A stretch of DNA of 64,000 nt, taken from the NCBI GenBank assembly GCA_964519725.1, contig CAZFKS010000006.1:355-64354 (forward strand), read 5' to 3'. A program made the translations under genes and the position numbers. Shown piece by piece: positions 5,172 to 28,563 of the stretch (position 1 is its first letter; every line of letters starts with the position of its first letter). The notes under the pieces are model-generated. The model had not been told where the DNA came from, made no database searches, and saw only the letters and a program-made list of their open reading frames with translations. Source of the DNA: an uncultured Gammaproteobacteria bacterium. Its GTDB lineage: Bacteria > Patescibacteriota > Patescibacteriia > Magasanikbacterales > UBA922.

Positions 5172-5202
5172 TAGCCAAAAAATAACCGACTTATTAAGTC
5201 GG
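5172..5202 (-). terminator. Rho-independent terminator overlapping the response-regulator stop codon
   Basis: On the minus strand, CCGACTTAATAAGTCGG forms a perfect 8-bp stem containing the TAA stop. It is followed by TTATTTTTTGG. Confidence 0.5.
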
Positions 5203-5865: not shown

Positions 5866-6022
5866 ACTGGAGCAGTATATGCACAGATTTTTTAGTTTGT
5901 AAATACGCGGACCATAAATTGCCAACCACTGGGCACAAAAGTTATGCACAATGGGAAGCGCGGCAGTCAGATTGACCAGATCTGACTGCCGGTTTTGAGG
6001 TGGGTTCCCCTCGGGAGAGGGG

Positions 6023-8032: not shown

Positions 8033-8091
8033 GACTGCCTCCTGGCAAAATTGAAGTTGACGAACTGGAAACCGAAGAAACATTAATCTTG

Positions 8092-8144
8092 AAATTGCTT
8101 CGGAGTTTAATGACACAGAGTATCACTAAAATCCGAAGCAATTT
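8092..8144. promoter_or_regulatory. 13-bp perfect inverted repeat upstream of the Cys-repeat gene
   Basis: AAATTGCTTCGGA (8092-8104) pairs with TCCGAAGCAATTT (8132-8144), 27-nt spacer. On the plus strand it is followed by GGTCATTTTTTCC. Confidence 0.3.
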
Positions 8145-8369: not shown

Positions 8370-8444
8370 TGGTGGACCAGACGGGAATTGAACCCGCAAT
8401 TTCAGCTTTGCAGGAAGATGTTTTACCAGTTAAACTACTGGCCC
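8370..8444 (-). tRNA. tRNA-like gene (75 nt, CCA encoded), possibly tRNA-Cys(GCA); anticodon stem non-canonical
   Basis: Minus-strand parse: acceptor GGGCCAG/CTGGTCC, U8, D-arm GTTT-AACTGGTA-AAAC with G18G19, T-arm GCGGG-TTCAATT-CCCGT, discriminator A, CCA. The anticodon loop CTGCAAA gives GCA. Only 3 of 5 anticodon-stem pairs (TCTTC/GCTGA) form. An A/T-rich 12-bp inverted repeat (8339-8366) follows immediately. Confidence 0.55.
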
Positions 8445-8609: not shown

Positions 8610-10466
8610 TTACTGCACGCGCACGCCTTTTTCTTGCGCAAAATCATCAGAGTTTAAACTCGCATCTAAATTGTAATTGCCGCTAGAAATTATTTCATTA
8701 ATAAAATTATCATGCGCACTAGCGTGAATGTTGGTGAGTAACAATGGAATAGTGCCGCGTTGCGCTTCGGTTGGTGTAATTGCTAACTCAACATTTATTT
8801 GTGCGCTTTCGTGCGCTGGCAAATCATTGGTTTGCCAGGTTAATGTGCGTGTACTTGCATTGTAAATTGGTTCGCGGCCACGACTAACATTACTTTTACC
8901 AGTAAAGGTAACGCCAGGTGCAAGTGTAGCCGACATTGAAACTGTGTCAGTTTCGCTTGTGCCGTTTTGCAAAGTTAAGAGCGCCCAGTATTTTGTTTCT
9001 TTGCCAACTTTTGGTGGCAGTGGACCACGACCAAGTTGGTCACCTTCCAGCGAGTAGTAATGTGCATCTGGAATTAAACGCAAACTAGTGCCAATTGGTA
9101 AGCCTGGCGTGGTGTAAGATTTTTCAAACAAAACAGGGCTGGCTTTAGTGCGAGCGCTCGTACGAATTGGGACATTTAAATTTAAATCAGTTTGGCCAGT
9201 TGGGAAATTAATAATTGGAATGGTGACGGAAACAACTTTACTTTGGCCTGGTAATAAAGTGGCGAGTTCAGAAATTTCTTTACTTGTAATCATGAGTGCA
9301 TTATTTTTTATCGGGTAGGGGTTATTGGCGCGCAGAGCTATGGCATTAATATTGCTTGGTAAACTAATATTTAGGGCCACGTCATTTAAGGTAATATCAC
9401 CAGTGTTAGCAACGGTAATGTTTAAAGCACTGCTTTGGCCTGGAGCTAATTTAGTTTTTTCCCAGCTACTTGAAATAGTAATATCTGGGCGCACCACTTT
9501 GGCCCGCATGGTGGCTGGGGTTTGGGAAATGTCAGTACTATTAATTGTTACAATTGGAGTGAAATCTAACAATAATTCCTTGGTCTCGGCAGGTAGATTG
9601 GTGGTGATGGCGACTGAACTAGTGGCGCTTTGGCCAGCCGTTAGGGCGGGTAATTGCCAAGTGTTGTTTTTAATTTCACCAGTGCTTGGGTTTTTGAATT
9701 GAATGGTGGTATGGTCTGGTGTGGTGACGCGAATTTCCGCAGCTGGAGAATTAGTGCGGTAAATATTTTTGACCACGAGTTGGCTATCAAAAGTACCTTG
9801 ACTGTAAATAGTGTCTGGTGCGGTAATAGTGGCCGTCAAAACCGAACCACGAGTAATACCAAGTAAAGAGGCGCCGCGGACTTCGTAATTGGTGTGACTT
9901 GGTTGGTGATAAACCAGCTCGGCTGCAAATTTAGTGTCAGTATTTGGGGCAGCAAAAAAGCGGCCGGTTAATTTAACTTCAGCGCCAGTTTTTGGGCGGG
10001 CAGTTTTCAGGGTGACTGAACCAGTGCTGGTCACATACGTGCCAGATTCAACCTGGGTTAATAAAAATCCTGGCGGCAAATTAAAATGTAAAACCGGATC
10101 AATCAGGTCAACCTGACTATTGTTTTGGTAGGCTGCAATAAGGATAATATCTTCACCACTCAGCACCCGACCAGCCTGATCTGGGTTTGGTTCAGTGGCG
10201 GCTACCTCTAACTTTAGGTCAACTAATTTGGTAATAGTTGGGTCATAAAAATACCAAAACGTCGCCAGGCCACCAATTACAAATATGGAAGCCAATAAAA
10301 GCATGTCAAAAATAAAGAGCTTGCGCGCGTGGGAGAATTTTAAGTGATATTTTTGTTGATAGTGCCATTCTAGAAAATGAATCGGGGAAAGAAGAAAAGC
10401 TAAAAACCACCGGTGTGGTTTGTGTAATAAGTGGTGGCGCGTAAGATGTTCACTAACAAATTTCAT
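8610..10466 (-). CDS. membrane-anchored cell-surface protein, Thr/Ser/Asn-rich with CARDB/DUF11-like repeats
   Basis: The ATG at 10466 opens a short N-terminal cytoplasmic stretch and one TM helix (FIFDMLLLASIFVIGGLATFWYFY). The ~540-aa exterior has motifs like LAPGQSSALNITVANTGDITLNDVALNISLP. Confidence 0.6.
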   Translation of the reverse strand: MKFVSEHLTRHHLLHKPHRWFLAFLLSPIHFLEWHYQQKYHLKFSHARKLFIFDMLLLASIFVIGGLATFWYFYDPTITKLVDLKLEVAATEPNPDQAGRVLSGEDIILIAAYQNNSQVDLIDPVLHFNLPPGFLLTQVESGTYVTSTGSVTLKTARPKTGAEVKLTGRFFAAPNTDTKFAAELVYHQPSHTNYEVRGASLLGITRGSVLTATITAPDTIYSQGTFDSQLVVKNIYRTNSPAAEIRVTTPDHTTIQFKNPSTGEIKNNTWQLPALTAGQSATSSVAITTNLPAETKELLLDFTPIVTINSTDISQTPATMRAKVVRPDITISSSWEKTKLAPGQSSALNITVANTGDITLNDVALNISLPSNINAIALRANNPYPIKNNALMITSKEISELATLLPGQSKVVSVTIPIINFPTGQTDLNLNVPIRTSARTKASPVLFEKSYTTPGLPIGTSLRLIPDAHYYSLEGDQLGRGPLPPKVGKETKYWALLTLQNGTSETDTVSMSATLAPGVTFTGKSNVSRGREPIYNASTRTLTWQTNDLPAHESAQINVELAITPTEAQRGTIPLLLTNIHASAHDNFINEIISSGNYNLDASLNSDDFAQEKGVRVQ

Positions 10467-10521: not shown

Positions 10522-10854
10522 TTATTCTGGTTTAATGAGTTTTGAACTAGGGGAGTAGAGAGTGTTATTGATTTTCCATTGATCCACATATTGTCCGATC
10601 CCTTTTTGGTTAGATTTGTTTCTAACCGTGGTTTTGCGCTGTGACCACTTAACTAAGCTTTCAAAGTTAATTTTATACCGGCCAGCCACGACCACGTAGG
10701 TAATCTCGTGGTCTTTGATGGCCCGGCGAATAGTTTGGGGGTTAACCCCAAACAGGCGAGCCGCCTCTGAGATAGAGACTCGAATCACTTCTTTACCTTG
10801 GGCTAAAGCACTCTGGTCATTTTGGTTTATTTCGTTTGGAAGGTTTTGTTCCAT
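10522..10854 (-). CDS. small helix-turn-helix DNA-binding protein (excisionase/HTH_17-like)
   Basis: ISEAARLFGVNPQTIRRAIKDHEITYVVVAGRYKINFESLVKW is a Xis/MerR-type wHTH. The ATG at 10854 is divergent from the sigma-factor gene. Confidence 0.6.
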   Translation of the reverse strand: MEQNLPNEINQNDQSALAQGKEVIRVSISEAARLFGVNPQTIRRAIKDHEITYVVVAGRYKINFESLVKWSQRKTTVRNKSNQKGIGQYVDQWKINNTLYSPSSKLIKPE

Positions 10855-10967: not shown

Positions 10968-11160
10968 TGATGTATACATTTATATTAAATAATAGTACAA
11001 TATTGTATACAAAACAATAAAACTAGCCCTCCTTGGATTAAGCCTAAGAAGCGGCCTAGCTCAGGTGGGGAGGTAGGCTCAGTAAACCCAACTTATCCTT
11101 ATATATGGCCTTATTTAAGTTGTTTTTTCTCCCTGGTTAGTGTATACTGTCCTTAATACA

Positions 11161-11210
11161 AAAAAGTGTGAAGTGAGGTTAAAGTGTTTCCTCAGGTGTA
11201 ACACTTTTTT
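11161..11210 (+). terminator. terminator/attenuator-like hairpin with T-run in the leader of the ECF sigma gene
   Basis: AAAGTGTT (11181-88) pairs with AACACTTT (11200-07), followed by TTTTTT. A second upstream copy AAAAAGTGT (11161-69) can pair with the same 3' arm, so two mutually exclusive structures are possible. Confidence 0.35.
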
Positions 11211-11229
11211 ATTCCCGCCGTCTTCTTAT

Positions 11230-11778
11230 ATGCCAGCGACCATAGCTGAAAAAAAACTGGTTTACCAGGTAATCAAAAATCGTGATCCACAGGCCTTTGC
11301 GGCTCTGTACGATTTGTACGTTGGTAAGATATACCGGTTTATCTTCTTTAAAGTTTCTAAAAAAGAAGACGCTGAAGATCTGACCAGTGATGTCTTTCTA
11401 AAGACCTGGCAGTATTTGGCAGAAAAAACTGACCGTGAAGTCAAAAGCTTTAGTGGTCTTATTTATCAAGTGGCACGCAATGTACTGGTTGATTGGTACC
11501 GACTCCGTGCGAGTCGTCCAGAAACCCCACTTGATCTGGCCCCTGAAATTAGTGTGGATGAAAAAGCCTTTGCAGCCCTTGATGTGAATCAGGCCGCCAG
11601 TGAAGTGCTCAAAGTTGTGCGCCAGTTAAAACAAGAGTACCAAGAAATTATTTTGCTCCGGTACATTGAAGAACTATCAATTAAAGAAATTAGCCATATT
11701 TTAAAAAAGTCACCAGTAAGCGTGCGAGTGACTTTGCACCGGGCCATTACGGTTTTAAAAAAAGCGCTTCATTTATGA
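11230..11778 (+). CDS. ECF (sigma-70 family, group 4) RNA polymerase sigma factor
   Basis: From the ATG at 11230: region 2 LTSDVFLKTWQY and region 4 ILLRYIEELSIKEISHILKKSPVSVRVTLHRAITVLKKAL. The 11140 start would place the hairpin inside the CDS. Confidence 0.8.
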   Translation: MPATIAEKKLVYQVIKNRDPQAFAALYDLYVGKIYRFIFFKVSKKEDAEDLTSDVFLKTWQYLAEKTDREVKSFSGLIYQVARNVLVDWYRLRASRPETPLDLAPEISVDEKAFAALDVNQAASEVLKVVRQLKQEYQEIILLRYIEELSIKEISHILKKSPVSVRVTLHRAITVLKKALHL

Positions 11779-13007
11779 ACGAGCTCAAGCACAATTTACG
11801 CGCTGTAAAGACCTTAGCTGAAGTTAACCCTGATGCTGAGTGGGTTAAGGCTGGCCGCAGTCGCTTGCTCTCTCAAATTAGTAATACGGTTATTCCAGTT
11901 GATAAGCCAGTTGTGGTAGATACTGCTCATGCCTTTTGGTTCCAATTTCAATCTAGTGCGGTCGTACGCACCTTACGCCCAGCTTTGACTGCGCTTGGGG
12001 TAGCGGCCCTGGCCACTGGTGGTTGGATTGCAAGTGTAAGTGCTTCAGTAAATAGTTTGCCTGGCGACCGGTTGTGGGTAGTTAAGCGCGCGGCGCAAAA
12101 CACTGAACTCGCGGTCCGAAGTTTGGGTGCTAGTGACTCAGAAAAAGTGCAATTACAATTAAATTTAGCGAAAAATCGGGCTGATGATATTAAAAAAGCC
12201 TTTAGTAAAAAATTAACCCCAGAAGCCAGTGCGACTGATCGGGAAAAAGCCGTAAAAGATCTGGCTGTTGCTGTAAAAGACGTACAAAATGTAGTTAAAG
12301 AAGTTTCAAGTAGTGTAAGTGATCAAGTTAAAGAAAATGGTAAAGATAAGCCGCTTGAGTCAGTGGAAACAGTTAAAGGTGTGGCCAAGGACACGACTGA
12401 AATTGCCAAGAGCTTGGCTTCAACCGTGGCCTCTTCAACTGCTGTGGGAGTTGATGTGACTAAACAAGTTTTGGAAACTGTTAAGGTGGTAAATCAAACT
12501 GGAATTAGCGCTGTTGAGGCCGTGATTCAGGGTCCGGCTGGCCTGGCTGAAACTGGCCAAGCTAATAATGTTAAGAATATTGTTTCCGAAAAAGTAGTTG
12601 ATCTGGTACAATCTACCGAAGCTTTAAAAATTGATCTCAGAAATTCGCTCGGAATTTCTGCACCAAGTACCACCGTTGAAACTAAACCGCTCATGCTTAC
12701 TGTACCAACAGCAACCGGAACAGTCGTCGTTACTTTGCCGCTGAACACTAGAACTAATTTGTTTGACAAAATGTTGCTAAATAGTCCAAGTAGTTCAGCT
12801 AGTATTATTAAAGACGCTGAACAAAAAACCGCTGATATTCACCAATCAGCCGTAGACATTAAAAAGAGTATTGATAATGGTAATTTGCAAGAAGCCGTGA
12901 ATAAGTTGAGAGATCTGAATGAAACAGCCGTGACCACGCAACAACAATTAATTGAAACAAAAACCAAAACCGTGGTTGAGGATAAAACTCCTGAACCAAT
13001 CAAATAA
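11775..13007 (+). CDS. putative membrane-anchored anti-sigma factor / DUF5667-like protein
   Basis: ATGA overlap with the sigma gene. ~75-aa N-terminus, one TM helix (LTALGVAALATGGWIASV), then a long K/E/A/V-rich helical extracytoplasmic region. Confidence 0.5.
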   Translation: MNELKHNLRAVKTLAEVNPDAEWVKAGRSRLLSQISNTVIPVDKPVVVDTAHAFWFQFQSSAVVRTLRPALTALGVAALATGGWIASVSASVNSLPGDRLWVVKRAAQNTELAVRSLGASDSEKVQLQLNLAKNRADDIKKAFSKKLTPEASATDREKAVKDLAVAVKDVQNVVKEVSSSVSDQVKENGKDKPLESVETVKGVAKDTTEIAKSLASTVASSTAVGVDVTKQVLETVKVVNQTGISAVEAVIQGPAGLAETGQANNVKNIVSEKVVDLVQSTEALKIDLRNSLGISAPSTTVETKPLMLTVPTATGTVVVTLPLNTRTNLFDKMLLNSPSSSASIIKDAEQKTADIHQSAVDIKKSIDNGNLQEAVNKLRDLNETAVTTQQQLIETKTKTVVEDKTPEPIK

Positions 13008-13196
13008 AGTTACACTCCGCTTACTGTCTGAGCCTCGCTAGATTTAGAAAAATCTGTCGAGGGCCATACAGTATGCGGCATCCGTAGGCAGAAAGGTCGA
13101 CCCGGTGAGGGCGCCATGCGGTTTTATTTACATGGATGTATTTGTAGACCCGTCCAATGGACGAGGCGCTACCAAATAGGTCCGAAAGATTAAATT
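13008..13196 (+). promoter_or_regulatory. GC-rich structured 5' leader of the S-layer-like gene
   Basis: Nested inverted repeat CCTCGctAGATTTagaaAAATCTgtCGAGG, palindromic GGTCGACC, and CGTCC-aat-GGACG. GC-rich in an AT-rich background. Confidence 0.3.
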
Positions 13197-16100
13197 ATGC
13201 AAAACTTGAAGAAATTCGGTAAGAAGCTCTTCACCATGTCAGTGGTTAGCATGACAGTTGCTTGGAGTGTAGGCCTTTCAGCCTTTGTTCCAGCTGCTGC
13301 TGTTGCCGCTGTATGTCCTGAGCTCGAAGCCGGAGACCTTTTCAAAGTTTCAGGTAACTCTGCCGTTTATTTGGTAAGTCCTGAAATGAAGCGTATGTAT
13401 TTCCCAAATGCGGAAGTATATAACTCTTGGTATAAAGATTTCAGTGGTATTACTACCATTGATTCATCATGTGTTGACGCTTACCCATCAGGTGGTGGTG
13501 TAAACTTCCGCCCAGGTTCATTCCTTGTTAAATCTGCTGTTTCTCCATCAGTATTTGCTGTTGGTCCAAACAACATGAAACACAAACTTGGTAGTGAAGC
13601 TGTAGCTTCTGCCCTCTATGGTTCAAACTGGGGCAAGCTCGTTCGCGTTCTCCCAGATGTATTTGACTCAAACTACAATGTTGGTGCTGAGCTTACAACA
13701 GCTATGCTCCACAATGGTCAGTTAGTTAAAAAGTCTGGTGATTCAACCGTTTACTTTGTAATGGATGGCAAGACTGTTAAAGTCGAAGGCTCACTCCCAT
13801 CACAAGTAGCTGGTGATGTTCGCACTGTATCAGAAGCAGTATTTAGTTCAGTTTCAATGGACTCAAACACTGTGACTGGTTCATCTGTAGTATCTAACCC
13901 TTCACAAAAGGGTGGTAGTATTGTTGTTCCTCCAGTAGGAAACGGCAAACTTAAGGTCAGTTTGGCAGCTAACACTCCAGCTGGTACTTATGCTTTGAAA
14001 AATGCTGCTCGTGTTCCATTCACTCGCGTAGTGGTTGAAAACACTGGTGCTACTGACGTTACTATTGATTCATTCAAAGTTGTTCGCGGTGGTTCACCAG
14101 CGCTCAACAGTGATTTTTCAACTGTTAACGTTGTAACCGAAGATGGCAGTCTCTTGAATGACACTGGTAAATCACTCAACTCAGACAACATGGCTACCTT
14201 TACGGAAGACGTGGTTGTTAAGGCTGGTTCTTCACGAACTTTGACCTTGGTTGGTGATATGGCCAACTTCTCATCAGGTGGTGCTGTTCCAACTCTTGGT
14301 CTTTACTCAGTAGAAGCTAATGCGACTGTAGATGGTTCATTACCAGTATATGGTAACCCTGTAACTACTAACGCTTCAGTAACTTTGAGTACTGCTACTG
14401 TTGCCGAAGGTTCAACTATTGGTACTGTTACCAAACAAGTTGGTTCAGCCAATGTTAACCTTGCCAACGTAAAAGTAACCGCTGGCACAGAAGACATGAA
14501 AGTAGAACGCATTGTTCTTAACAACAGTGGTTCACTTGCTGACACTGATGCTGAAAAATTTGTCTTGAAGTACAATGGTAACACTGTTGCCAATGGTACT
14601 CTTAAGAACAAATATCTTACTTTTGATCTCATGAACTGTGGTGATCTCTGTAAGATTGAAAAAGGTAACGACAAAACTTTTGAAGTTTACGGTGATTTGA
14701 CCTCTGGTTCAGGTCGCAGTATCAATCTTGATGTACAACGTGCTACTCACGTACTCGTTAAAGACCTCAAGAACAACTTCTACGTTACCCCAACTAACAA
14801 TGCCTCTTCAATGAGTAACACTGTTAGTGTTTCACAAGGTAAAATTGATGTTTCTAAGACCAATGATGTACAAGCTGGTAACATTCCAGAAAATGCTAGT
14901 GGTACAAAACTTGGTTCATGGAACTTCAAGGTAACCGGTGAACCTATCGACGTTCGCACTTTGGTGTTCAAGATTACCACTACTGGTAGTCTCTCACCTG
15001 ACGATGTTGACAGTCTCACTTTGTACAACAAAGATGGTAAAGCATTGATCGGTGCTGTAGACGGTGTTGGTTCAAGTGCAGCCTCAAACGGCTACGCTAC
15101 CAGTACTGATTCATTCACCCTTCAACCTGGTGATAACGTTCTTACTGTTAAAGGTAAGATCGACAGTTCAGCTACTGCTAACGACACTGTAGCAATCTCA
15201 GTTGACATGAGTAACTCAAGCAACTTTGATGCTCGTGGTGTAAACAGTAATGAAACTATCACTGTTGGTACTTACGCTACTCCAGCTTCTGTAGTAGCTG
15301 CCAACACTTTGACAATCAAAGGTTCAGCTCTTCGCGTAACTACTTTGTCTACTCCTCCTGCAACTACGTTTGCCGCTGGTACTAACGATGTAGTATTTGC
15401 TAAAGTGCTCCTTGATGCTTCTGATTCTTCAGAAGATGTTAAAGTAACCCAATTCAAAGTAACTGACGTAACTAACACTACTGCTAAAGCTATTGATGTT
15501 CAAAACATTCGTTTGTTTGTGGACAAAGATGGTGACAGCTTCAATGGTGCTGGTACTGCTACTGCTTTGACTGAAACTGTAAGTGGCTCAGACTCAACTG
15601 CTGGTAATGACGAAGTCTTTACCTTCAATTTTAGTGGCTCAGATCAATTTGTGATCAAAGCCGGTAAAAAAGTTGAAGTTACTGTAAAAGCCAACTTAGC
15701 TGGTTCAGCTGCTGCTGGTAGTCACACTCTTGGTGTGGCCACTGCTGACTATGTTTCTGCTACTGGCGTTACCACTGGTAACACTGTTGTTGAAACTATT
15801 GACTCAGCCGCTGGTCAAGCCATGTCTGTTGGTACTGCTGGTGGTACAGTTGAAGTTTCTCTTGATCCTTCAACTCAAGCCGCTAAGCAATATGCTGCTG
15901 GTACTAAAGGCGTAAGTCTTGCTACCTTCCGCTTTACTGTAACCTCAAGTGAAGATGTATCTCTTGATACTTTGAACTTGACTCAATTGGTTACTGATAC
16001 AGCTAGTACCTCATTCAAGGATTACGACATGGTGTACCTTTACACCACTGGTGGTACCTTGGTAGGTTCAGCTGTTCCAACCTCTTCTGGTAGTGTATTT

Positions 16101-16970
16101 ATTGACTTAGCTGACAACACCTTTGTAGCTAAAGCCAGTGATACAAATGGTACTTCATTGGTAGTTAAAGCTGACTTGTCCAGTATTGGTCCAAGTCAAA
16201 ACGTAACTACTGGTGGCCATGCTATCGGTTACAAGATTAACTCTGCAGGCCAAGCTAAAGCTAAGGGTGCCTTGACTGGTTCAGCTTCAGTTGTTTACTT
16301 CAACTCAAGCGCTCCAACTGGTAACACTCACTACATGTTCAAAGCTGTACCTACTGTACAAGTATGTACTGGTACTGTTGATGATTCAAACAACTGTTTG
16401 AAAGCTGGTGGTTCAAGTCCTGTACTTACCAACGGTTCAAACGACCTTATCCGTTTCCGCGTGACCGCTAATACCGGTGATGTTGGTCTCTATAAGTTCA
16501 CCTTTGACATCACAACAACTACAGCTACTGTTACTACTGTTGAACTCTTTGATACTACAGAATCAAATGAAGTATCATTGTACTCAGCAACTATGACTGC
16601 TTCAGTTCCTTATGTTGAAGCTCTCTTTGACACTGACAGTAGTGGTGTAGGCTCAGGTGGTGAAGAACGCACTGTTTCAGCTGGCACAAGTCGCTACTTC
16701 GTACTCCGTGGTACTGCGACCGGTGTTACTACTGGTGCTTCAGTTTCAACCCGCCTTGGTGGTGACTCTGCTAACTCTGCCGGTATTTCAAGTGCTCGCG
16801 TGATGGACCCAGCATCAACTGTTGATGCTACTGCTAACATCCACGATGACTTCATCTGGTCAGATCGCAGTGCTGGTTCTCACTCAACTTCAACCAATGA
16901 CTGGACAAACGGTTACTTGGTAAGTGGTTTGAACTCAGCCTCATCATCTCCAGTTGTACTTGCGAAATAA
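13197..16970 (+). CDS. large secreted S/T/G/V-rich surface (S-layer-like) protein, 1257 aa
   Basis: Signal peptide MQNLKKFGKKLFTMSVVSMTVAWSVGLSAFVPAAAVAA. Beta-rich repetitive Thr/Ser composition throughout. The strong terminator right after it suggests high expression. Confidence 0.7.
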   Translation: MQNLKKFGKKLFTMSVVSMTVAWSVGLSAFVPAAAVAAVCPELEAGDLFKVSGNSAVYLVSPEMKRMYFPNAEVYNSWYKDFSGITTIDSSCVDAYPSGGGVNFRPGSFLVKSAVSPSVFAVGPNNMKHKLGSEAVASALYGSNWGKLVRVLPDVFDSNYNVGAELTTAMLHNGQLVKKSGDSTVYFVMDGKTVKVEGSLPSQVAGDVRTVSEAVFSSVSMDSNTVTGSSVVSNPSQKGGSIVVPPVGNGKLKVSLAANTPAGTYALKNAARVPFTRVVVENTGATDVTIDSFKVVRGGSPALNSDFSTVNVVTEDGSLLNDTGKSLNSDNMATFTEDVVVKAGSSRTLTLVGDMANFSSGGAVPTLGLYSVEANATVDGSLPVYGNPVTTNASVTLSTATVAEGSTIGTVTKQVGSANVNLANVKVTAGTEDMKVERIVLNNSGSLADTDAEKFVLKYNGNTVANGTLKNKYLTFDLMNCGDLCKIEKGNDKTFEVYGDLTSGSGRSINLDVQRATHVLVKDLKNNFYVTPTNNASSMSNTVSVSQGKIDVSKTNDVQAGNIPENASGTKLGSWNFKVTGEPIDVRTLVFKITTTGSLSPDDVDSLTLYNKDGKALIGAVDGVGSSAASNGYATSTDSFTLQPGDNVLTVKGKIDSSATANDTVAISVDMSNSSNFDARGVNSNETITVGTYATPASVVAANTLTIKGSALRVTTLSTPPATTFAAGTNDVVFAKVLLDASDSSEDVKVTQFKVTDVTNTTAKAIDVQNIRLFVDKDGDSFNGAGTATALTETVSGSDSTAGNDEVFTFNFSGSDQFVIKAGKKVEVTVKANLAGSAAAGSHTLGVATADYVSATGVTTGNTVVETIDSAAGQAMSVGTAGGTVEVSLDPSTQAAKQYAAGTKGVSLATFRFTVTSSEDVSLDTLNLTQLVTDTASTSFKDYDMVYLYTTGGTLVGSAVPTSSGSVFIDLADNTFVAKASDTNGTSLVVKADLSSIGPSQNVTTGGHAIGYKINSAGQAKAKGALTGSASVVYFNSSAPTGNTHYMFKAVPTVQVCTGTVDDSNNCLKAGGSSPVLTNGSNDLIRFRVTANTGDVGLYKFTFDITTTTATVTTVELFDTTESNEVSLYSATMTASVPYVEALFDTDSSGVGSGGEERTVSAGTSRYFVLRGTATGVTTGASVSTRLGGDSANSAGISSARVMDPASTVDATANIHDDFIWSDRSAGSHSTSTNDWTNGYLVSGLNSASSSPVVLAK

Positions 16971-16995
16971 TCTTCGCTTGACAGCTTAGGACAGA

Positions 16996-17027
16996 AAGCC
17001 TCCCGCCTCGGCGGGGGGCTTTTTTGT
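16996..17027 (+). terminator. Rho-independent terminator
   Basis: AAAGCCTCCCGCC-tcgg-GGCGGGGGGCTTTTTTG is a GC-rich 12-bp stem followed by a T-run. Confidence 0.8.
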
Positions 17028-17028
17028 C

Positions 17029-17057
17029 TTGAAAAAATATCAAAAGAGGGTATAATA
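17029..17057 (+). promoter_or_regulatory. sigma-70-type promoter (TTGAAA-N17-TATAAT)
   Basis: TTGAAA at 17029-34, TATAAT/ATAATA at 17051-57, about 20 nt upstream of the 17079 ATG. Confidence 0.5.
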
Positions 17058-17078
17058 ATTAGCATATATCCCTTTAAT

Positions 17079-17768
17079 ATGAATAAAAATTTGAAAATCG
17101 GTTTGGTCGGTTTGGTCGTAGTTGGTCTATTGGGTGGTGGGTACTGGTGGTACCAAAAAACCTACCAAGACGCCACCAAGCTTAATAACCAGGCTCTGCT
17201 CAAAGACCCATTTGCTGGTCTCACGGTTCCCGCTGATAAGGATGCTGCCACTAAAGCTATTTTGGAAGAAAAATTAGCTGAGACCAAAACCATGTACCAA
17301 AAACTACCAAATATTTGGGAAACTTGGGTGGCAATTGGTAATATCCATGCTTTGCTTGGTGATTCAGAAGGGGCACTGCTCGCTTACCAGCAATCAGTGA
17401 CGCTACAGTCTAACAATATTGTGGCTGAACGAAACATTGCTGATCTATACGCAAATACTTTTCATGATTATGAAAAGGCTGCCGCTCATTACCGGGCGGC
17501 AATTAGAAATGAAGTCAATAACGCTGAACTGTACAGTAATTTAGTAAAAATTGAATGGCAAAAATTAAATAATCCGACTTTGGCTGAGTCTGATTTAGAA
17601 GAGGGTTTAAATCGAACCAGACATAATACTGATTTACTTTATGTAGCCGTAGATTTTTACACCGCGATTGGTAAACCAGATAAAGCGGCTGCATATGCGG
17701 CTGAAATTAAAGCCAAAAAACCAAGTTCTGAACCAGAGGGCGCAGTGTTAGGTATCCCAGGTCGTTAA
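17079..17768 (+). CDS. TPR-repeat protein with N-terminal membrane anchor
   Basis: N-terminal helix IGLVGLVVVGLLGGGYWWY, then TPR-like repeats (WVAIGNIHALLGD..EGALLAYQQSV..; YEKAAAHYRAAI..). Confidence 0.6.
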   Translation: MNKNLKIGLVGLVVVGLLGGGYWWYQKTYQDATKLNNQALLKDPFAGLTVPADKDAATKAILEEKLAETKTMYQKLPNIWETWVAIGNIHALLGDSEGALLAYQQSVTLQSNNIVAERNIADLYANTFHDYEKAAAHYRAAIRNEVNNAELYSNLVKIEWQKLNNPTLAESDLEEGLNRTRHNTDLLYVAVDFYTAIGKPDKAAAYAAEIKAKKPSSEPEGAVLGIPGR

Positions 17769-17772
17769 TTGT

Positions 17773-19779
17773 ATGAAAAAAAATTATTCTCAAATTATTT
17801 GGTGGTTAACCGTGGCTACGTTTCTGGTTCCGCTCATTGTTATCCCAGGTAGTTTTATTTTTCCGTTTATTGTGCCAAAAGCACTGGCGTTTCGGATGTT
17901 AGTATTGTGTCAGTTGGGAGTGTTTTTGACTGCGTACTATGCGCATAATTCAGATCTCAAAATTAGACCGACCGCTGTGTCCTGGGCTGTACTGGCGTTT
18001 GCCCTTAGTTTTACTTTGTCTACTTTTTTAGGAACTGATGTTCACCACAGTCTGTGGGATAATCACGAGCGGATGTTAGGCCTGTTTACCGTGTTACACT
18101 ACGTGATTTATTTTTTCATTCTTTCCACAATTTTTCGGACTAAAGACGTGTGGCACTCACTATTGCGATTATTCCTGGCAGCAGGAAGTGTGGTGATGCT
18201 GATCGGTTTGTTACAAAAAATTAGTCCAAATTTTTTGTTAAATAATGGTAGTGCGCGTGTTTCCGCTACGCTCGGTAATGCAATTTATCTAGGTGCTTAC
18301 GGGATATTTTTATTTTTTGTAAGTTTGTATTTTTTCTTTTTAGAAAAAAAATGGTGGTATTTGGTAGGTAGTTTGCTAGCCTTCACTGGTATTTTGATTA
18401 GCGGTACCCGCGGTTCAGTGCTTGGTTTAGTGGCTGGCTTAGGAACCATGATGACAGTATATTTTTTAACTTTGCCAAAAGAACAAAATAAAGCGCGAAA
18501 ATGGCTGGGCTCATTTGCGATTGGTTTGGTGCTCGTGTTTGGGGTTTTATTTGCTTTTAGGCATACAAACACTGTGCAATCTTTGCCAGCGGTTGGTAGT
18601 TTGGTCAATACGACTATCTCTGGGACAGCGAGTACTCGGTTGATGGCGTGGAAAATTGCAATTGAATCATGGCAAGATAAACCAATTTTTGGTTGGGGTC
18701 CAAATAATTTTTTCTACGCCTTTAATAAATATTATAATCCAGAATTTTTGCGGTTTGGTTGGGGTGAAACTTGGTTTGATAATGCGCACAATATTATTTT
18801 GAATACCCTAGCCACCCAGGGTTTGGTAGGGGTAGTAACCTATCTAAGTCTATTTGGTGCCGCGGTATTTTTGTTAATTCGAGGCTATCGACAGGGGAGA
18901 GTTTCACAGCATTTGACTGCAGTTGGATCGGCTTTTTTGGCTGGGCATCTGGTACAAAATATATTTGTATTTGAAAACATTACCTCGTATCTGTATTTTT
19001 TCTTTTTTTTAGCCATGGTGAGTAGTTTAAGTTTAGGCGCTGATACTGAACCAGTTAAAGCTAGACCCGTGTTATCATCGGGTTTACTGGGTGGAATGTG
19101 GGCCGTGCTGGCGCTGTTAATTTTTGCGACTAACATTAATGTTGCTCGGGCAAATTCAGGCATGATTAATACTTTGCAAACAATTTACCAAGGCGGTGAT
19201 GTGATAGCAGTGTATAACAAAAATAGCCAAATTGGCTCACCGCATCAAGCAGACAATCGTTTGGATTTGGGACGAGCCATTACTCAGATAGCCGGGCAGT
19301 ATTCTGAACAAAATCGTCAAGCTGAATTTCAACCTCTCGCTGAATTAGCAATTCAAGAATTAGATAAAAATCGTCTTGAGCATCCCTATGACATTCGTAA
19401 TCAAGTTCAAGAAGCACAGTTACTACAGATTGCTTACGAAATGTACCACAACACTGACCATTTGTTAAAAGCTAATGAAATTTTGTTAGAAGCTAAAACC
19501 AAATCACCAGAACGCCAACAAGTTGATTATATGCTCTCTGGAATTAAAATTTCACTTGGTGATAAAAAAACAGCCGTTGATATTTTACAGGCTAGTGTCG
19601 AACGAACGCCAAGTATTGGTGAAGGTTGGTGGCGCTTGATTTATACCTTGCAAGTTAGTGGTGATACGGCTGGAGCAAAAGCAAAAGCTCTTGAGGCAAG
19701 AGAAAGGGGAATTGTATTTGACGCGATCGGTGAGTCAATTGTTGGACCACTGGCACCAAAAGCAACGACCACTCAGTAA
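17773..19779 (+). CDS. Wzy_C-family polytopic membrane protein (O-antigen ligase / O-oligosaccharyltransferase-like) with C-terminal TPR domain
   Basis: ~10-12 TM helices with an ISGTRGSVLGLVAGLG periplasmic-loop motif typical of Wzy_C (WaaL/PglL/PilO). The C-terminal ~250 aa are soluble and TPR-like. It converges with the GT4 gene, overlapping by 7 bp. Confidence 0.6.
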   Translation: MKKNYSQIIWWLTVATFLVPLIVIPGSFIFPFIVPKALAFRMLVLCQLGVFLTAYYAHNSDLKIRPTAVSWAVLAFALSFTLSTFLGTDVHHSLWDNHERMLGLFTVLHYVIYFFILSTIFRTKDVWHSLLRLFLAAGSVVMLIGLLQKISPNFLLNNGSARVSATLGNAIYLGAYGIFLFFVSLYFFFLEKKWWYLVGSLLAFTGILISGTRGSVLGLVAGLGTMMTVYFLTLPKEQNKARKWLGSFAIGLVLVFGVLFAFRHTNTVQSLPAVGSLVNTTISGTASTRLMAWKIAIESWQDKPIFGWGPNNFFYAFNKYYNPEFLRFGWGETWFDNAHNIILNTLATQGLVGVVTYLSLFGAAVFLLIRGYRQGRVSQHLTAVGSAFLAGHLVQNIFVFENITSYLYFFFFLAMVSSLSLGADTEPVKARPVLSSGLLGGMWAVLALLIFATNINVARANSGMINTLQTIYQGGDVIAVYNKNSQIGSPHQADNRLDLGRAITQIAGQYSEQNRQAEFQPLAELAIQELDKNRLEHPYDIRNQVQEAQLLQIAYEMYHNTDHLLKANEILLEAKTKSPERQQVDYMLSGIKISLGDKKTAVDILQASVERTPSIGEGWWRLIYTLQVSGDTAGAKAKALEARERGIVFDAIGESIVGPLAPKATTTQ

Positions 19780-20894
19780 AATCTAATTGTTTCAGCGACC
19801 ATTTCTTCTACGGTACGCACTTTTTTGGGATCAATTGTTTGGCGGTGGTTAAGATTAGAGATAAGCGCATCTTGTAGGGCGCGGACATTGTTTGGTACGC
19901 ACAATGTGGAGAGTGAATAATCGGCCAGCAAGCCGCTGATTCCGCCTACGGCAGTAGCGACAATTGGAATGCCGGCACTCATAGCTTCAAAAATGGTGTA
20001 GGGTAAACCCTCCTTGCGTGAGGGGAGTACAAACACATCAAAGGCTTTTAAATAGGCCGCAGCTTCTGGCACAGCCCCAAGCAAGTGAATATTTTTGCTG
20101 ATTTTTAGTTTTTTAATTAAATTTTCTAGGTTGGCTTGCTCTGGGCCAGTTCCTAAGATAAAAAAGTGCACACCGGGTTTTTGGTGCACAATTTCAGCTG
20201 CAGCGGCAATAAGGATATCAAGACCTTTGGTCAAAAATAAATTGGCAATTGTCCCTACCCAGTAGTTTGGGGTTTTGGTCGTAGTTAGAGCGCATAATTT
20301 TTGGCGCGCATCTTTGGCTAAATAAAATTTTGGAGTGGTAATTCCGGTTTGAATGATTTGTAATTTTTTTTCAGGAATGTTAAGGCTAAGCCCAATCCGT
20401 TTTTCTTTTTCTGATAAAATAATTAAAGTGTCCTTAAACCGAGCCGTCCATTTTTCTAACCAGCGATACAGGAGACGGACTGGGTAAGCAAGAGGCTCTA
20501 AAAAGACCCACCCGTGAACTGTGTAGATAATTTTCGGGCGGTTTTTTAGGCCGATGGCGGCCAAAGAGCCAATAATGCCGGCTTTTGAACTATTCAGGTG
20601 GACAACAGTAAAGCCGCCAGTTTGGTACAGCTTGCGGATTTCAAAAATCGCCCGGAGGTCTTCTAGGGGGCGAATAGGCCGAACTAGGTGTTTTAGGGCC
20701 AAGACTTGACGAGGAGGCGAGAGACGGCTAAGGGCCACCTGGAGGTCCTGGGGACCGCTTGCTTCACCAATAGCCACTGTGACGCTCTCTGGGGGTAGGG
20801 AAGAGGCTAGGTCAAAAACATAGCGCTGAGCCCCGCCCCAAAAGCCCTGAGTGATGATGTAGAGGATTTTACCTGGCTCAGATTGACTTTTCAT
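19773..20894 (-). CDS. GT4 glycosyltransferase
   Basis: GFWGGAQRYVFDLASSL at the N-terminus. EX7E motif EGLPYTIFEAMSAGIPIVATAVGGI. Confidence 0.8.
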   Translation of the reverse strand: MKSQSEPGKILYIITQGFWGGAQRYVFDLASSLPPESVTVAIGEASGPQDLQVALSRLSPPRQVLALKHLVRPIRPLEDLRAIFEIRKLYQTGGFTVVHLNSSKAGIIGSLAAIGLKNRPKIIYTVHGWVFLEPLAYPVRLLYRWLEKWTARFKDTLIILSEKEKRIGLSLNIPEKKLQIIQTGITTPKFYLAKDARQKLCALTTTKTPNYWVGTIANLFLTKGLDILIAAAAEIVHQKPGVHFFILGTGPEQANLENLIKKLKISKNIHLLGAVPEAAAYLKAFDVFVLPSRKEGLPYTIFEAMSAGIPIVATAVGGISGLLADYSLSTLCVPNNVRALQDALISNLNHRQTIDPKKVRTVEEMVAETIRFY

Positions 20895-20947: not shown

Positions 20948-22483
20948 ATGAGAATTTTAATCACTGGTGGGGCGGGTTTCATTGGTTCGCATTTATGCGG
21001 CCGATTTTTACGCGAAGGTCACGAAGTAATTTGCGTGGATAGTTTTTTTAGTGGGAAAAAAGAAAATGTTCAGGAGTATCTCAATAATCCAAAATTCACT
21101 TTGATTAAGCATGATATAAGGTATCCATTTAAAGTACCGGGTCAAACTTTGGATCGGATTTACAACTTGGCTTGTCCGGCGTCACCGACTCAATATCAAT
21201 TCGATCCAATCTTAACCATTGAAACAGCCATTATTGGTACGCAAAACATGTTAAAATTGGCGCGTAAAACTGGCGCACGCATGTTGCAAGCATCGACCTC
21301 AGAAGTGTATGGTGATCCACTGGAACATCCACAAAAAGAATCGTACTGGGGTAATGTTGATCCGCTGGGTAAACGCGCGTGTTATGATGAAGGTAAACGC
21401 GCTGGTGAAGCGCTTTGTAAAGATTATGCGCTCGAATATGGCGTTGATGTTCGTATTATCAGAATTTTTAATACCTATGGCCCGCGCATGATGTTTAGCG
21501 ATGGCCGGGTACTATCTAATTTTATTGTCCAAGCTCTGCTTGGTGAAAATATCACGGTTCATGGTGATGGTACACAGACACGCAGTTTTTGTTATGTTGA
21601 TGATTTAATTGAAGGAATGATTCGCCGACTTGAACACCCAAACCCTGATTGGATGCCGGTTAACCTTGGTAATCCTGATGAACGAACAATTGGTGATTTA
21701 GCCAAAATGGTTAAAGAAAAAATTGATTCAGACAGTGAAATTATTTTTCAGCCGATTTCTCAAATTCCTAACCGCGAAGGTGATCCAAAACAAAGATGTC
21801 CGAATATTGAGCGCGCTAAAAAAGTACTTGCCTGGCAACCAGAGGTTGATTTTGCTGCTGGTCTGGCAGCCACAATTGCGGATTTTAAAAAGCGATTAAC
21901 TAATAAACCTAGACTTTTGGTATTTTTGGGCGCTGACCAAAAGCAGGTTGATTTAAAACATAAACTTTTACAAGTGGTGACTGAATCGTGTCCAGGTTGG
22001 GATTTTGATGTGATTACTAACGAATCAGATATTTCTAGTTTTGAAAACGTAACTGTTCATAAGGTTTCTGGTTCTCCAGGCAGTTTGTGGTTTGTTTTAG
22101 CTGCGGCAAAAAAAGCTAAAAAACTACAAAAGAAACATCTGTACCAGGTGGCTTGGGTGCTGGCCACTGGAAAAGCACATTTTGCGGCCGCCTTGTATTC
22201 TTGGTTCACTGGCGGTGCGGCGCCATTACTTTTAACAGCCCTTGAAAAGACGATTAATGAGTCGATGTTACGTCGTGGTAAAAAAATATCAGGCCTGTAT
22301 AATGCACTGATGCGACACGTTCATCGCTGGCAAGTAATTGCGCCTTTAACAGTAGAACAAAAACGCTGGCTCGAAGAAGACAGACAGGTTTCAGCAATTA
22401 ATTATGTTGATAGTTTGGAGCCGGCAGCACAAAATACGAAGCAGTTATTCCAAGAACTGGAAATACTATCGACGCGTTTGTAA
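20948..22483 (+). CDS. UDP-glucuronate decarboxylase (UDP-xylose synthase-like SDR) fused to a ~195-aa C-terminal domain of unknown function
   Basis: MRILITGGAGFIGSH...ASTSEVYGDP...YDEGKRAGEALC are UXS/ArnA-type motifs within ~315 aa. The extension (KPRLLVFLGADQKQ...GWDFDVITNESD...) matches nothing I recognise. Confidence 0.8.
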   Translation: MRILITGGAGFIGSHLCGRFLREGHEVICVDSFFSGKKENVQEYLNNPKFTLIKHDIRYPFKVPGQTLDRIYNLACPASPTQYQFDPILTIETAIIGTQNMLKLARKTGARMLQASTSEVYGDPLEHPQKESYWGNVDPLGKRACYDEGKRAGEALCKDYALEYGVDVRIIRIFNTYGPRMMFSDGRVLSNFIVQALLGENITVHGDGTQTRSFCYVDDLIEGMIRRLEHPNPDWMPVNLGNPDERTIGDLAKMVKEKIDSDSEIIFQPISQIPNREGDPKQRCPNIERAKKVLAWQPEVDFAAGLAATIADFKKRLTNKPRLLVFLGADQKQVDLKHKLLQVVTESCPGWDFDVITNESDISSFENVTVHKVSGSPGSLWFVLAAAKKAKKLQKKHLYQVAWVLATGKAHFAAALYSWFTGGAAPLLLTALEKTINESMLRRGKKISGLYNALMRHVHRWQVIAPLTVEQKRWLEEDRQVSAINYVDSLEPAAQNTKQLFQELEILSTRL

Positions 22484-22485: not shown

Positions 22486-23589
22486 ATGTCTGGTAAGCGG
22501 ATCGTAATCTTTACCACCGCGTATTTACCGTTTATAGGTGGGGCTGAAATAGCGGTAAAAGAGCTGACTGAAAGACTGCTTGATTTTGAGTTTGTCGTAA
22601 TTACACCGCGGTTAAAACCAAGTTTGCCAGCTGAAGAATTGATCGGACGCACAAAAGTAATTAGGGTTGGGCGGGGTAATTGGTTTGATAAACTTTTGTT
22701 TTGGTATAACGGTGAAAAAGTAGCGCGCAAACAGAGTTCTTTTGATTTGATTTGGGCGGTTATGGCTAGTTACGGTGGTCTTGCGGCTCTCCGCTATAAG
22801 AAAAAAAATCCAACAATCCCTTTTTTCTTAAATTTACAAGAAGGAGATAGTGTATATCACATTTACAGCCGTGCACTGTGGGTGTGGCCCTGGTTTAAAC
22901 AAGTTTTTAAACGAGCTGACTATATTCAAACCCTGAGTAATTATTTGGCTGATTGGGCCAAAAAAATGGGTGCCTGTTGTCCGGTAACTGTGGTGCCGAA
23001 CGGAGTCGCACTGACCGAAAGCGCGGGTATTAAAAAAACAGCCAAAGAGAAAATTATTTTGTCAGTATCTAGATTGGTGAAAAAAAATGGTCTTGAAGAT
23101 TTGGTGAAAGCCATGACCTTTTTGCCAAATGAATATGTGTTGTGGATTGTTGGTGACGGGGTGCTTAGACCTAAACTGGAGGCGCTGATTAAAAAAAAGC
23201 ACCTGGAAACGCGAGTCGTTCTAAAAGGTGAAGTGGTAAATGAAAAATTGCCAGAATTATATGGCCAGGCAAGTGTGTTCGTGAGACCTTCTCTGTCAGA
23301 GGGACTGGGGATTTCATTCTTAGAAGCCATGCAACTTGGGGTGCCAGTGATTGCTACGAGAGTAGGTGGAATTCCTGATTTTTTGCAAGCTGGTGTGACT
23401 GGCTGGTACTGTAGAGTTCGTGATCCCAGCAGTATTGCCACCCAAATTACTTACGTTTTGGCTGAAAAAAATGCGCTTGAGGTTGAACGAGTGGTACAGA
23501 CGGCCAAGAATTTAATTAGCCAAAAATATTCGTGGGAAGTAGTCACTAACCAAATGAAAAAAATATTTAATTTATTATGCGAATCTTAA
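22486..23589 (+). CDS. GT4 glycosyltransferase
   Basis: IVIFTTAYLPFIGGAEIAV...SLSEGLGISFLEAMQLGVPVIATRVGGIPDF. Confidence 0.8.
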   Translation: MSGKRIVIFTTAYLPFIGGAEIAVKELTERLLDFEFVVITPRLKPSLPAEELIGRTKVIRVGRGNWFDKLLFWYNGEKVARKQSSFDLIWAVMASYGGLAALRYKKKNPTIPFFLNLQEGDSVYHIYSRALWVWPWFKQVFKRADYIQTLSNYLADWAKKMGACCPVTVVPNGVALTESAGIKKTAKEKIILSVSRLVKKNGLEDLVKAMTFLPNEYVLWIVGDGVLRPKLEALIKKKHLETRVVLKGEVVNEKLPELYGQASVFVRPSLSEGLGISFLEAMQLGVPVIATRVGGIPDFLQAGVTGWYCRVRDPSSIATQITYVLAEKNALEVERVVQTAKNLISQKYSWEVVTNQMKKIFNLLCES

Positions 23590-25840: not shown

Positions 25841-25841
25841 T

Positions 25842-28560: not shown

Positions 28561-28563
28561 TGT

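Follow-up and report, generated by a model that had tools for sequence, protein, structure and literature searches.

Positions 13197–19779 of the 64,000-nucleotide stretch analyzed here (the window; positions 355–64,354 of contig CAZFKS010000006.1, assembly GCA_964519725.1) encode a large secreted protein, a small tetratricopeptide repeat (TPR) protein, and a Wzy_C-type membrane enzyme with a C-terminal TPR domain, and a long cluster of glycan genes follows. We lean, with moderate confidence, toward the view that these genes belong to a conserved envelope module of Magasanikbacteria that makes and glycosylates a major surface protein, the Wzy_C-TPR enzyme transferring the glycan of the cluster onto that protein. 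Both the S-layer identity of the protein and its glycosylation are what we infer from the observations below. All open reading frames (ORFs) of at least 150 aa in the window, which holds about 50 genes overall, were scanned against Pfam; NCBIfam and Rfam were also searched, with the leader of the surface-protein gene as the Rfam query.

The neighborhood of the two large genes was compared across species. One genome per GTDB species was scanned, yielding 206 relatives of the Wzy_C-TPR enzyme, and 80 loci were fetched; upstream genes were counted in 52 species-representative loci with at least 8 kb of upstream sequence, the downstream control in 45 loci, and gene content in 56 loci. In 39 of the 52 loci, a homolog of the N-terminal domain of the surface protein is encoded ahead of the Wzy_C-TPR gene and on the strand of that gene. 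When any large secreted protein is counted, the number rises to 43 of 52, as compared with 1 of 45 in the downstream control; this count includes unrelated large proteins with signal peptides, and those scanned (in loci L004, L021 and L044) carry lamin-tail (LTD) or beta-helix domains. The gene order of the window is also found in L001 and L003, and in L004 with an LTD protein in place of the surface protein. The adjacency of surface-protein and Wzy_C-TPR genes is more than chance and is conserved class-wide, among enzymes that are 41–47% identical to the query (60% in one close relative). The genes downstream are far more variable: the proximal glycosyltransferase of family GT4 and the epimerase gene are present in 17 and 19 of the 56 loci, respectively, and most other cluster genes in 0–7. 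A conserved enzyme beside varying downstream genes fits recognition of a conserved acceptor and of the carrier end of the glycan, and not of its repeat unit. Furthermore, the persistence of the adjacency with an unrelated LTD or beta-helix protein fits an enzyme that serves any large secreted acceptor better than it fits a single polymer-binding domain.

The surface protein (13197–16970, + strand, 1257 aa) was described in the initial annotation as secreted, rich in Ser and Thr, and followed by a strong terminator, and each of these points was borne out. Its N-terminus is a basic and hydrophobic signal-like segment, MQNLKKFGKKLFTMSVVSMTVAWSVGLSAFVPAAAVAA followed by VCPE, which ends AVAA/VCPE and is conserved in orthologs. 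Ser and Thr make up 23% of its residues, the highest proportion in the window, as compared with 7–19% in all other window proteins. The intrinsic terminator (16997–17026, +) consists of a 10-bp GC-rich stem followed by T5GT, with a folding energy of −31.3 kcal/mol (z = −5.5 against shuffled sequences). The effective number of codons (ENC) of the gene is 34.1, the lowest of 50 window genes, where the median is ~47.5 and the next-lowest value, 40.1, belongs to a neighboring surface protein with DUF11/CARDB domains. The codon bias and the strong terminator fit a very abundant surface protein but do not prove that it forms an S-layer. Judging from these sequence features, the protein is probably very abundant, and we regard it as a candidate S-layer or major surface protein and as the proposed glycan acceptor.

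The AlphaFold2 model of the surface protein (predicted local distance difference test, pLDDT, 84.6; predicted template modeling score 0.41) starts with an alpha/beta domain of ~200 aa, which a short disordered linker joins to a chain of about seven beta-sandwich domains. Foldseek matches of the model in the PDB are generic Ig-like arrays (PrgB, alpha-2-macroglobulin, integrins, Bap). The protein has 160 homologs at E ≤ 0.001; among the 120 of them that were listed, there is no Pfam domain and no functional name, the named ones being called “hypothetical.” The first ~200 residues are 35–82% identical among orthologs, and the remainder only ~25% in distant ones. Neither an LPXTG motif nor a C-terminal anchor is present in the sequence. 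The neighboring DUF11/CARDB protein (8610–10466, − strand, 618 aa) has one N-terminal transmembrane (TM) helix and, with an ENC of 40.1, ranks second in the window for codon bias. Its homologs occur in ~27 related loci, mostly upstream of the gene for an extracytoplasmic function (ECF) sigma factor and on the opposite strand, and the module may have in it another abundant surface protein.

The enzyme (17773–19779, +, 668 aa) had been annotated as a polytopic Wzy_C protein with a C-terminal TPR domain, which agrees with what was found. The Pfam domain Wzy_C (PF04932), of the O-antigen ligase superfamily, spans residues 200–358 (E = 1.2e-22; 80.7 bits against a cut-off of 31.7), and the C-terminus (~558–650) matches TPR proteins in the PDB. 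The best fold match of the AlphaFold2 model (pLDDT 83.8) is WaaL (7tpg/7tpj). Loop charges, read by the positive-inside rule, fit 13 TM helices with the N-terminus inside, and both the catalytic loop (262–340) and the C-terminal TPR domain (~459–668) are predicted to lie outside the membrane. In an alignment of 27 homologs with a mean column identity of 58%, R213, R289 and H339 are invariant, and a profile of the core aligns them with R191, R265 and H313 of Cupriavidus metallidurans WaaL. In Escherichia coli WaaL, R215, R288 and H338 are essential, and PglL conserves R224, R298 and H349 (PMC3643930); we take the three residues of the enzyme, as aligned, to correspond to these. The C-terminal domain has invariant residues of its own in the same 27 homologs (H491, D494, R496, D498, R501, H537, D540, R542). 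The enzyme is proposed to be an O-oligosaccharyltransferase (O-OTase).

The initial annotation placed the Wzy_C gene about 800 bp past the surface-protein gene. The distance is right, but the gap is not empty, as it contains a gene for a 229-aa TPR protein (17079–17768, +; Pfam TPR families) with an N-terminal membrane anchor (TM helix at residues 5–23), a candidate accessory protein resembling WsaA. A promoter-like site, TTGAAA-16-TATAAT (17029–17056, +), stands ahead of it; with 11 of 12 positions identical to the consensus, this is a consensus match only. Homologs of the TPR protein are recognizable in 10 fetched loci, 8 of which are species representatives, and other loci carry TM proteins of 225–235 aa in the same slot. 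In addition, 14 of the 52 loci (e.g., L014 7711–9936, L035 7765–9939 and L050 5561–7906, plus 11 others) have a second Wzy_C-TPR paralog, of ~740 aa, inserted after the surface-protein gene and ahead of the conserved Wzy_C-TPR gene. It is 25–34% identical to the main enzyme, and the catalytic Arg, Arg and His are kept in the copy from L014, the single copy checked by residue.

The host is a member of Candidatus Magasanikbacteria, in the Patescibacteria or Candidate Phyla Radiation (CPR). A protein database search with the enzyme returned 715 relatives at E ≤ 0.001, and nearly all of the named ones are from metagenome bins assigned to Candidatus Magasanikbacteria or “Patescibacteria group,” under the title “O-antigen ligase family protein.” The G+C content of the window is ~41%. 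CPR genomes are reported to have no genes for synthesis of lipid A or lipopolysaccharide (LPS), including lpxC and kdsA (PMC5220378), and thus a lipid A-core is not expected as the acceptor. According to the same 2017 genome paper, the formation and structure of the CPR envelope “remain unclear,” and a glycosylated S-layer was merely speculated (PMC5220378); a 2026 review notes S-layers in some CPR species only. Our literature search found no paper describing a protein glycosylation system in Patescibacteria. Many GTDB species-representative records with a Magasanikbacteria-type locus are titled “uncultured Gammaproteobacteria bacterium” (L011, L014, L017, L026–L031 and many others), and one is titled “Candidatus Udaeobacter”; these records are probably mislabelled or mis-binned.

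The arrangement of the locus resembles that of the S-layer glycosylation (slg) loci of Firmicutes. In Geobacillus stearothermophilus NRS 2004/3a, the S-layer gene sgsE is accompanied by wsaA (TPR, 168 aa) and wsaB (a Wzy_C predicted O-OTase), followed by transferases; WsfB of Paenibacillus alvei combines Wzy_C with a C-terminal TPR domain, and such combinations beside S-layer genes have been assigned as predicted protein O-OTases (PMC2943079). The slg loci and the window share a monocistronic surface-protein gene near the cluster, a small TPR gene, a Wzy_C gene, and then transferase and sugar-supply genes. The C-terminal TPR domain of WsfB is another point in common, and a side-branch step that uses polyprenyl-phosphate-glucose (WsfH/WsfD) parallels the pairs of family GT2 and GT-C glycosyltransferases in the window. 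The likeness is one of gene order and domains. Unlike the slg loci, the window locus belongs to Patescibacteria, has both a fused TPR domain and a separate TPR protein (229 aa), has ECF sigma and anti-sigma genes upstream, and lacks a Wzm/Wzt exporter and a WbaP-type initiating enzyme in its cluster (no ABC_tran, ABC2_membrane or Bac_transf match). Its cluster is also much larger (43 kb), with genes for sulfation and nonulosonic acids, and neither SLH nor any other S-layer domain of a known kind is present in the proposed acceptor.

The locus was also compared with systems outside the Firmicutes. With PglL and TfpO (PilO) of Proteobacteria, the enzyme shares Wzy_C with the conserved Arg/Arg/His, a gene beside that of the proposed acceptor, and a lipid-linked glycan donor that would be used outside the cytoplasm. 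Genes for O-OTases usually adjoin those of their targets (PMC3643930), and the neighborhood of the enzyme is of this PglL type, beside a candidate acceptor gene (43 of 52 loci) and outside LPS loci. Unlike PglL and TfpO, the enzyme has no PglL_A motif, possesses a 13th TM helix and an external TPR domain, and comes from a monoderm host, and the acceptor would be a 1257-aa multi-domain protein and not a pilin. In contrast to WaaL of C. metallidurans (7TPG/7TPJ), it has one more TM helix and extends into a domain of ~210 aa at its C-terminus, there are no LPS genes near it, and the host is one in which a lipid A-core is not expected. The general protein O-glycosylation cluster of Tannerella forsythia, whose S-layer glycoproteins carry a terminal nonulosonic acid, likewise has nonulosonic-acid genes in a glycan cluster for surface proteins, but T. 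forsythia is a diderm of the Bacteroidota, and the match of the window to its BFO_1060-type transferase is far below the family cut-off.

Taken together with these precedents, the following mechanism may be proposed. The 1257-aa protein would be exported by Sec, as its signal peptide suggests, and would be made in large amounts if codon bias, terminator and leader are a guide. The conserved ~200-aa N-terminal domain may hold it on the cell, with the fast-diverging beta-sandwich domains facing outward. The eight GT4-type and the Capsule_synth-like transferases would assemble a complex glycan, linked to a polyprenyl-phosphate carrier, on the inner side of the membrane, with an amino-deoxy sugar and an acetamidino nonulosonic acid supplied by the cluster, together with enzymes for amidation, methylation and sulfation. 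Priming and flipping would fall to a phosphoglycosyltransferase and to a Wzx or ABC exporter encoded outside the window. Outside the membrane, the four pairs of GT2 (polyprenyl-phosphate-sugar synthase) and GT-C proteins may add side sugars, by analogy with the Gtr paradigm and with fusions among their relatives, and MBOAT and SGNH proteins may add O-acetyl groups. The Wzy_C-TPR enzyme would then move the glycan from its lipid carrier to Ser, Thr or Tyr hydroxyls of the emerging surface protein, which the extracytoplasmic TPR domain of the enzyme and the membrane-anchored TPR partner may hold, following the logic of WsaA/WsaB and WsfB of Firmicutes. Judging only from their conserved position, the ECF sigma and anti-sigma factors probably tie expression to the status of the envelope.

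That the glycan decorates the surface protein had already been suggested in the initial annotation, and through synteny, the WaaL fold, the Arg/Arg/His residues, the predicted outward position of the TPR domains, a host lineage reported to be free of LPS, and precedent it is still the best-supported reading, but a number of points weigh against it. The surface protein has no Pfam or NCBIfam match, with Pfam tried to E ≤ 10, and no SLH, CWB2, RsaA-type or other known S-layer or anchoring domain was found in it; the early label “S-layer-like” is supported by no domain or fold match. Sequence and fold cannot tell whether the enzyme is a protein O-OTase or instead ligates or polymerizes glycans, and BLAST-type analysis is likewise unable to separate O-OTase from ligase (PMC3643930). 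The profile comparison by which PglL/PilO and WaaL were to be distinguished confirmed Wzy_C and went no further: in a profile search, the matches to WaaL (4.9e-7) and to 9rmk, a chain titled “Oligosaccharyltransferase” (6.5e-5), were of similar weakness, a profile of the core alone retained only WaaL, and a single-sequence search of the PDB gave TPR proteins only. Nothing relevant to 9rmk turned up in the literature search. Among solved structures, the nearest is that of a lipid A-core ligase, in a comparison whose fold libraries did not include PglL. The PglL_A motif (PF15864) was not found in the enzyme at Pfam E ≤ 0.01; PilO is also without this motif (PMC3643930), so that O-OTase activity is compatible with its absence. 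In the 64-kb window, neither an initiating phosphoglycosyltransferase nor a Wzx, an ABC exporter or a GtrA-like flippase was found. The second Wzy_C-TPR paralog could be another O-OTase or a polymerase partner, and a pair of polymerase and ligase is possible. Finally, 9 of the 52 loci have no large secreted protein upstream, and synteny with a glycan cluster is also to be expected if the surface protein merely binds the polymer.

This last point leads to a different explanation, in which the enzyme is a polymer ligase that puts the glycan on a lipid anchor or wall component, giving a secondary cell wall polymer (SCWP) or lipoglycan, and the unglycosylated surface protein binds that polymer via its N-terminal domain, as SLH-domain S-layer proteins bind SCWP; the genes would adjoin because anchor and ligand co-evolve. 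We consider this unlikely, though deserving of serious attention. It would account for a lipid-acceptor ligase, WaaL, as the best fold match, for the absence of PglL_A, for the N-terminal domain being the most conserved part of the surface protein (35–82% as compared with ~25%), which is the pattern of a wall or polymer anchor, and for the proximal GT4 and epimerase being the most conserved glycan genes. It is at odds, however, with the way in which glycopolymers are attached to monoderm walls, which is by LCP-family enzymes and not by Wzy_C, and we know of no Wzy_C enzyme that has been shown to ligate to peptidoglycan. The two extracytoplasmic TPR modules suggest a protein partner, the adjacency persists with LTD or beta-helix proteins that do not have the N-terminal domain, and the described cases of Wzy_C with TPR beside S-layer genes are predicted protein O-OTases (PMC2943079).

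An enzyme that polymerizes lipid-linked repeat units for a capsule or exopolysaccharide, as Wzy does, with the surface protein unrelated or only co-regulated, seems to us improbable. Pfam Wzy_C spans both polymerases and ligases, the two tandem paralogs in 14 of 52 loci could be a polymerase and a ligase, and the cluster of one relative, L003, contains a Wzx-like gene, all of which would suit such an enzyme. Nevertheless, Wzy polymerases follow the structure of the repeat unit and are among the most variable genes of their clusters, and here the enzyme is conserved (42–47% identity) while the downstream glycan genes differ widely; there is no Wzx or chain-length regulator in the window, and neither a fused TPR domain nor tight linkage to a secreted protein is a feature of Wzy polymerases. 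Only a small chance is likewise given to general O-glycosylation, in which a broad O-OTase acts on a wide range of exported proteins (type IV pilins and other surface proteins, for instance), and the neighbor is its most abundant substrate or none at all. PglL-type enzymes are often general (PMC3643930), the enzyme occurs without a large upstream protein in 9 of 52 loci, and the upstream partners differ in kind (the surface-protein family or LTD/beta-helix proteins). Set against this are the same-strand linkage to one protein class in 39 of 52 loci, which argues for a preferred partner, and the lack of a pilin gene near the enzyme in the window or in three annotated contexts (L001, L003, L004); the explanation also overlaps with glycosylation of the surface protein and differs from it in breadth only. 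A chance neighborhood, with no functional link among surface protein, Wzy_C gene and cluster, is very improbable given the adjacency in 43 of 52 loci against 1 of 45 in the control, among enzymes only 41–47% identical to the query. What could be said for it is that a terminator closes the surface-protein gene and a separate promoter-like site precedes the genes after it, so that the surface-protein gene and the TPR and Wzy_C genes are not one transcript.

The long run of glycosyltransferase and sugar-modifying genes noted in the initial annotation spans ~43 kb, from 19773 to the end of the window, and includes in total eight GT4-type transferases, four small GT2 paralogs, one Capsule_synth/BFO_1060-like transferase and four methyltransferases; the assignments that follow rest on Pfam unless stated otherwise. 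A GT4 gene (19773–20894, −) and an epimerase/dehydratase gene (20948–22483; 511 aa, with a C-terminal extension) form the part of the cluster most often kept beside the Wzy_C-TPR gene. Five GT4 genes, a GT2 gene (27859–28560) and a GT4-like gene (28564–29790) follow at 22486–29790 (+), putatively for cytoplasmic assembly of the chain. An AsnB-type amidotransferase and a methyltransferase are encoded at 33316–35800 (+), and two methyltransferases, an MBOAT protein and an SGNH/AlgX-like protein at 37986–42131 (+), the last two being a candidate pair for extracytoplasmic O-acetylation. Genes for a GDP-mannose 4,6-dehydratase (+), a DegT aminotransferase (−) and a cupin-like protein (−, 130 aa, 46875–47267, read by eye) at 44702–47267 may supply an amino-deoxy sugar. 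A GT4, an FkbM methyltransferase and the Capsule_synth/BFO_1060-like transferase (49393–50913) occupy 47381–50913 (+). The last of these, which matches Pfam and, weakly, NCBIfam, reaches 42.5 bits at the domain level against the BFO_1060-family model, where the family cut-off is 200, and is a candidate nonulosonic-acid transferase.

Two further modules complete the cluster. Genes for sulfation are located at 50916–56702 (+) and encode a fusion of PK-barrel, PUA and ATP-sulfurylase domains, a protein of the Na/H-exchanger family, an adenosine 5′-phosphosulfate kinase, a CysQ-like phosphatase and a sulfotransferase. The fusion protein is 751 aa long, with the second domain PUA-like, and the genes form a self-contained module for 3′-phosphoadenosine 5′-phosphosulfate and sulfation within the glycan cluster. 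The remaining region, 56704–64000 (+), encodes an amidotransferase set of HisF/HisH-like proteins and WbuX (TIGR03573, 351 bits), a cytidylyltransferase, two GFO/IDH/MocA oxidoreductases, NeuB, and a NeuC-like ORF (63000–64000, +) that is still open where the window stops; as a group, these genes suggest that an acetamidino nonulosonic acid is synthesized. Wzx, lipid A and LPS-core genes had been described as not evident, exporters (Wzx, Wzm/Wzt) and initiating enzymes (WbaP/WecA) as not obvious, and teichoic-acid, LPS-core or lipid A genes nearby had been named as what would speak for a conventional polysaccharide. Among the window ORFs of at least 150 aa, none matched a family for Wzx, Wzm/Wzt, Bac_transf/WecA, lipid A, the LPS core or teichoic acid, nor was there a Polysacc_synt/MurJ-type or Wzz match in the window. 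In L001, the closest sampled relative (Wzy_C 56% identical), the cluster contains a UbiA-family prenyltransferase gene and a PGP-phosphatase-like gene (18136–19471) that are absent from the window and resemble the decaprenyl-phospho-sugar donor route; the content of the cluster thus differs even between near relatives.

Beside each of the four small GT2 genes is a gene for a polytopic protein. The product of 29808–31130 (+) is a PMT_2-type GT-C by a direct Pfam match. The protein encoded at 31133–32581 (+; partner GT2 at 32550–33314) has WFDEG after its first TM helix, and no family match was found for it with Pfam to E ≤ 10 or with the profile of the 35781–37295 family. A PMT_2-related GT-C (35781–37295; NCBI start M11; conserved HPPG) and an adjacent GT2 lie at 35781–38019 (+), as assigned from homologs, invariant residues and Pfam. 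Homologs of this GT-C carry PF13231 (PMT_2), and distant ones are named methylthioxylose transferase; the family profile gave no GT-C match in the PDB. Finally, a GT2 gene and an overlapping gene for a 593-aa polytopic protein (42911–44692) occupy 42177–44692 (+; Pfam, relatives). The family of the latter protein has 685 cluster representatives, some of which weakly match PMT_2, and some relatives (P0308, P0320, P0388, P0392, P0340) are fused to an N-terminal GT2, a GtrA/DPMS TM domain or a methyltransferase. Such Rosetta-stone fusions tie the family to glycosylation dependent on polyprenyl-phosphate sugars, and the protein is read as a GT-C from this kinship.

The initial annotation counted three GT-C enzymes and four GT2s. 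The four GT2s stand, but the GT-C count was imprecise, as there are four polytopic partners, of which three are supported as PMT_2-type GT-C from their sequences, one directly and two through relatives. The possibility that the three polytopic proteins without a direct Pfam match are hidden Wzy or Wzy_C paralogs was rejected (hhalign probability ≤2.4%), and Pfam searched to E ≤ 10 yielded nothing useful for these three. The repeated occurrence, four times, of a small GT2 beside a polytopic protein resembles the three-component Gtr system and the mycobacterial methylthioxylose transferase. Unlike the Gtr system, the window has no gene for a small GtrA-like flippase, with no small membrane ORF left over for this role in the cluster, and the TM helices that GtrB has at its C-terminus are missing from the GT2 proteins.

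Upstream of the surface-protein gene are two putative regulatory genes and a conserved leader. An ECF-type sigma factor (Pfam Sigma70_r2 and r4_2) is encoded at 11140–11778 (+), and its true start may be downstream of the listed GTG. The adjoining gene (11775–13007, +) encodes a single-pass membrane protein (one TM helix at ~70–88) that, judging from its conserved position and a weak match to DUF5667 (E = 0.026), a match that is also recorded in the L003 ortholog, is probably an anti-sigma factor. A homolog of the sigma factor is present upstream of the Wzy_C-TPR gene in 34 of the 52 species loci, and the single-pass anti-sigma-like gene is kept with it in these 34. Divergent from the sigma gene is a gene for a 110-aa helix-turn-helix (excisionase-like) protein (10522–10854, −).

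The leader (13008–13196, +) contains a hairpin (13032–13062), GCCATACAGT (13063–13072), AGGTCG (13094–13099) and a stem and hairpin module (~13082–13120), and it occurs at the same position in L001, L003 and L005–L082. Among 46 upstream regions, CCATACAG is present in 26 (0.007 expected per region) and AGGTCG in 35 (0.037 expected), the latter ~90–180 nt ahead of the start codon. In the RNA, an outer stem and a hairpin flank the internal loop that contains AGGUCG, and all five pairs of the hairpin show compensatory changes. The copy in the window is a weak version that folds no better than shuffled sequences (z = −0.68), and a descriptor of the helices was too permissive, with 41 matches observed against 19–31 in shuffled controls. 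The Rfam search gave no match for the leader, and no sigma-70-like promoter was found in 13008–13196. A reading of GCCATACAGT and AGGTCG as a −35/−10 promoter pair was rejected because their spacing varies, from 27 to ~156 nt. The leader could serve to stabilize the mRNA, or it could be where the mRNA is processed or a regulator binds.

If the enzyme is an O-OTase, Wzy_C-type protein glycosylation would be extended to a new phylum, and a divergent enzyme with a built-in acceptor-binding domain would become available for glyco-engineering. The locus also names class-wide candidates for the major surface protein, the transferase, the accessory TPR protein, the ECF sigma system and the leader, and with such concrete candidates the question of the CPR envelope becomes directly testable. 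A broader and more speculative picture, which we doubt will hold as a whole, is that of a class-wide “surface coat” system of Magasanikbacteria. It would be governed by the ECF sigma factor and would combine a highly expressed S-layer glycoprotein, a CPR-specific clade of 13-TM Wzy_C-TPR O-OTases, sometimes with two paralogs, an undescribed structured leader (an AGGUCG internal loop between two covarying helices, plus GCCAUACAGU), and a species-variable sulfated nonulosonic-acid glycan for recognition of hosts or partners in episymbiont-like bacteria. Were it true, it would be the first defined protein-glycosylation pathway, and the first S-layer gene family with a regulatory RNA, in this part of the CPR.

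Further upstream, a 697-aa Cys/Asp-rich repeat protein (6023–8116, −) has seven matches to the Dictyostelium CTDC repeat and DxDxDG motifs like those of thrombospondin type 3. The G+C content of its gene is 58%, as compared with 41% in the surroundings, and a similar gene is located at the same relative position in L001. A response-regulator ORF (5194–6279) overlaps this gene and probably starts well downstream of its listed start. A gene for tRNA-Cys is located at 8370–8444 (−).

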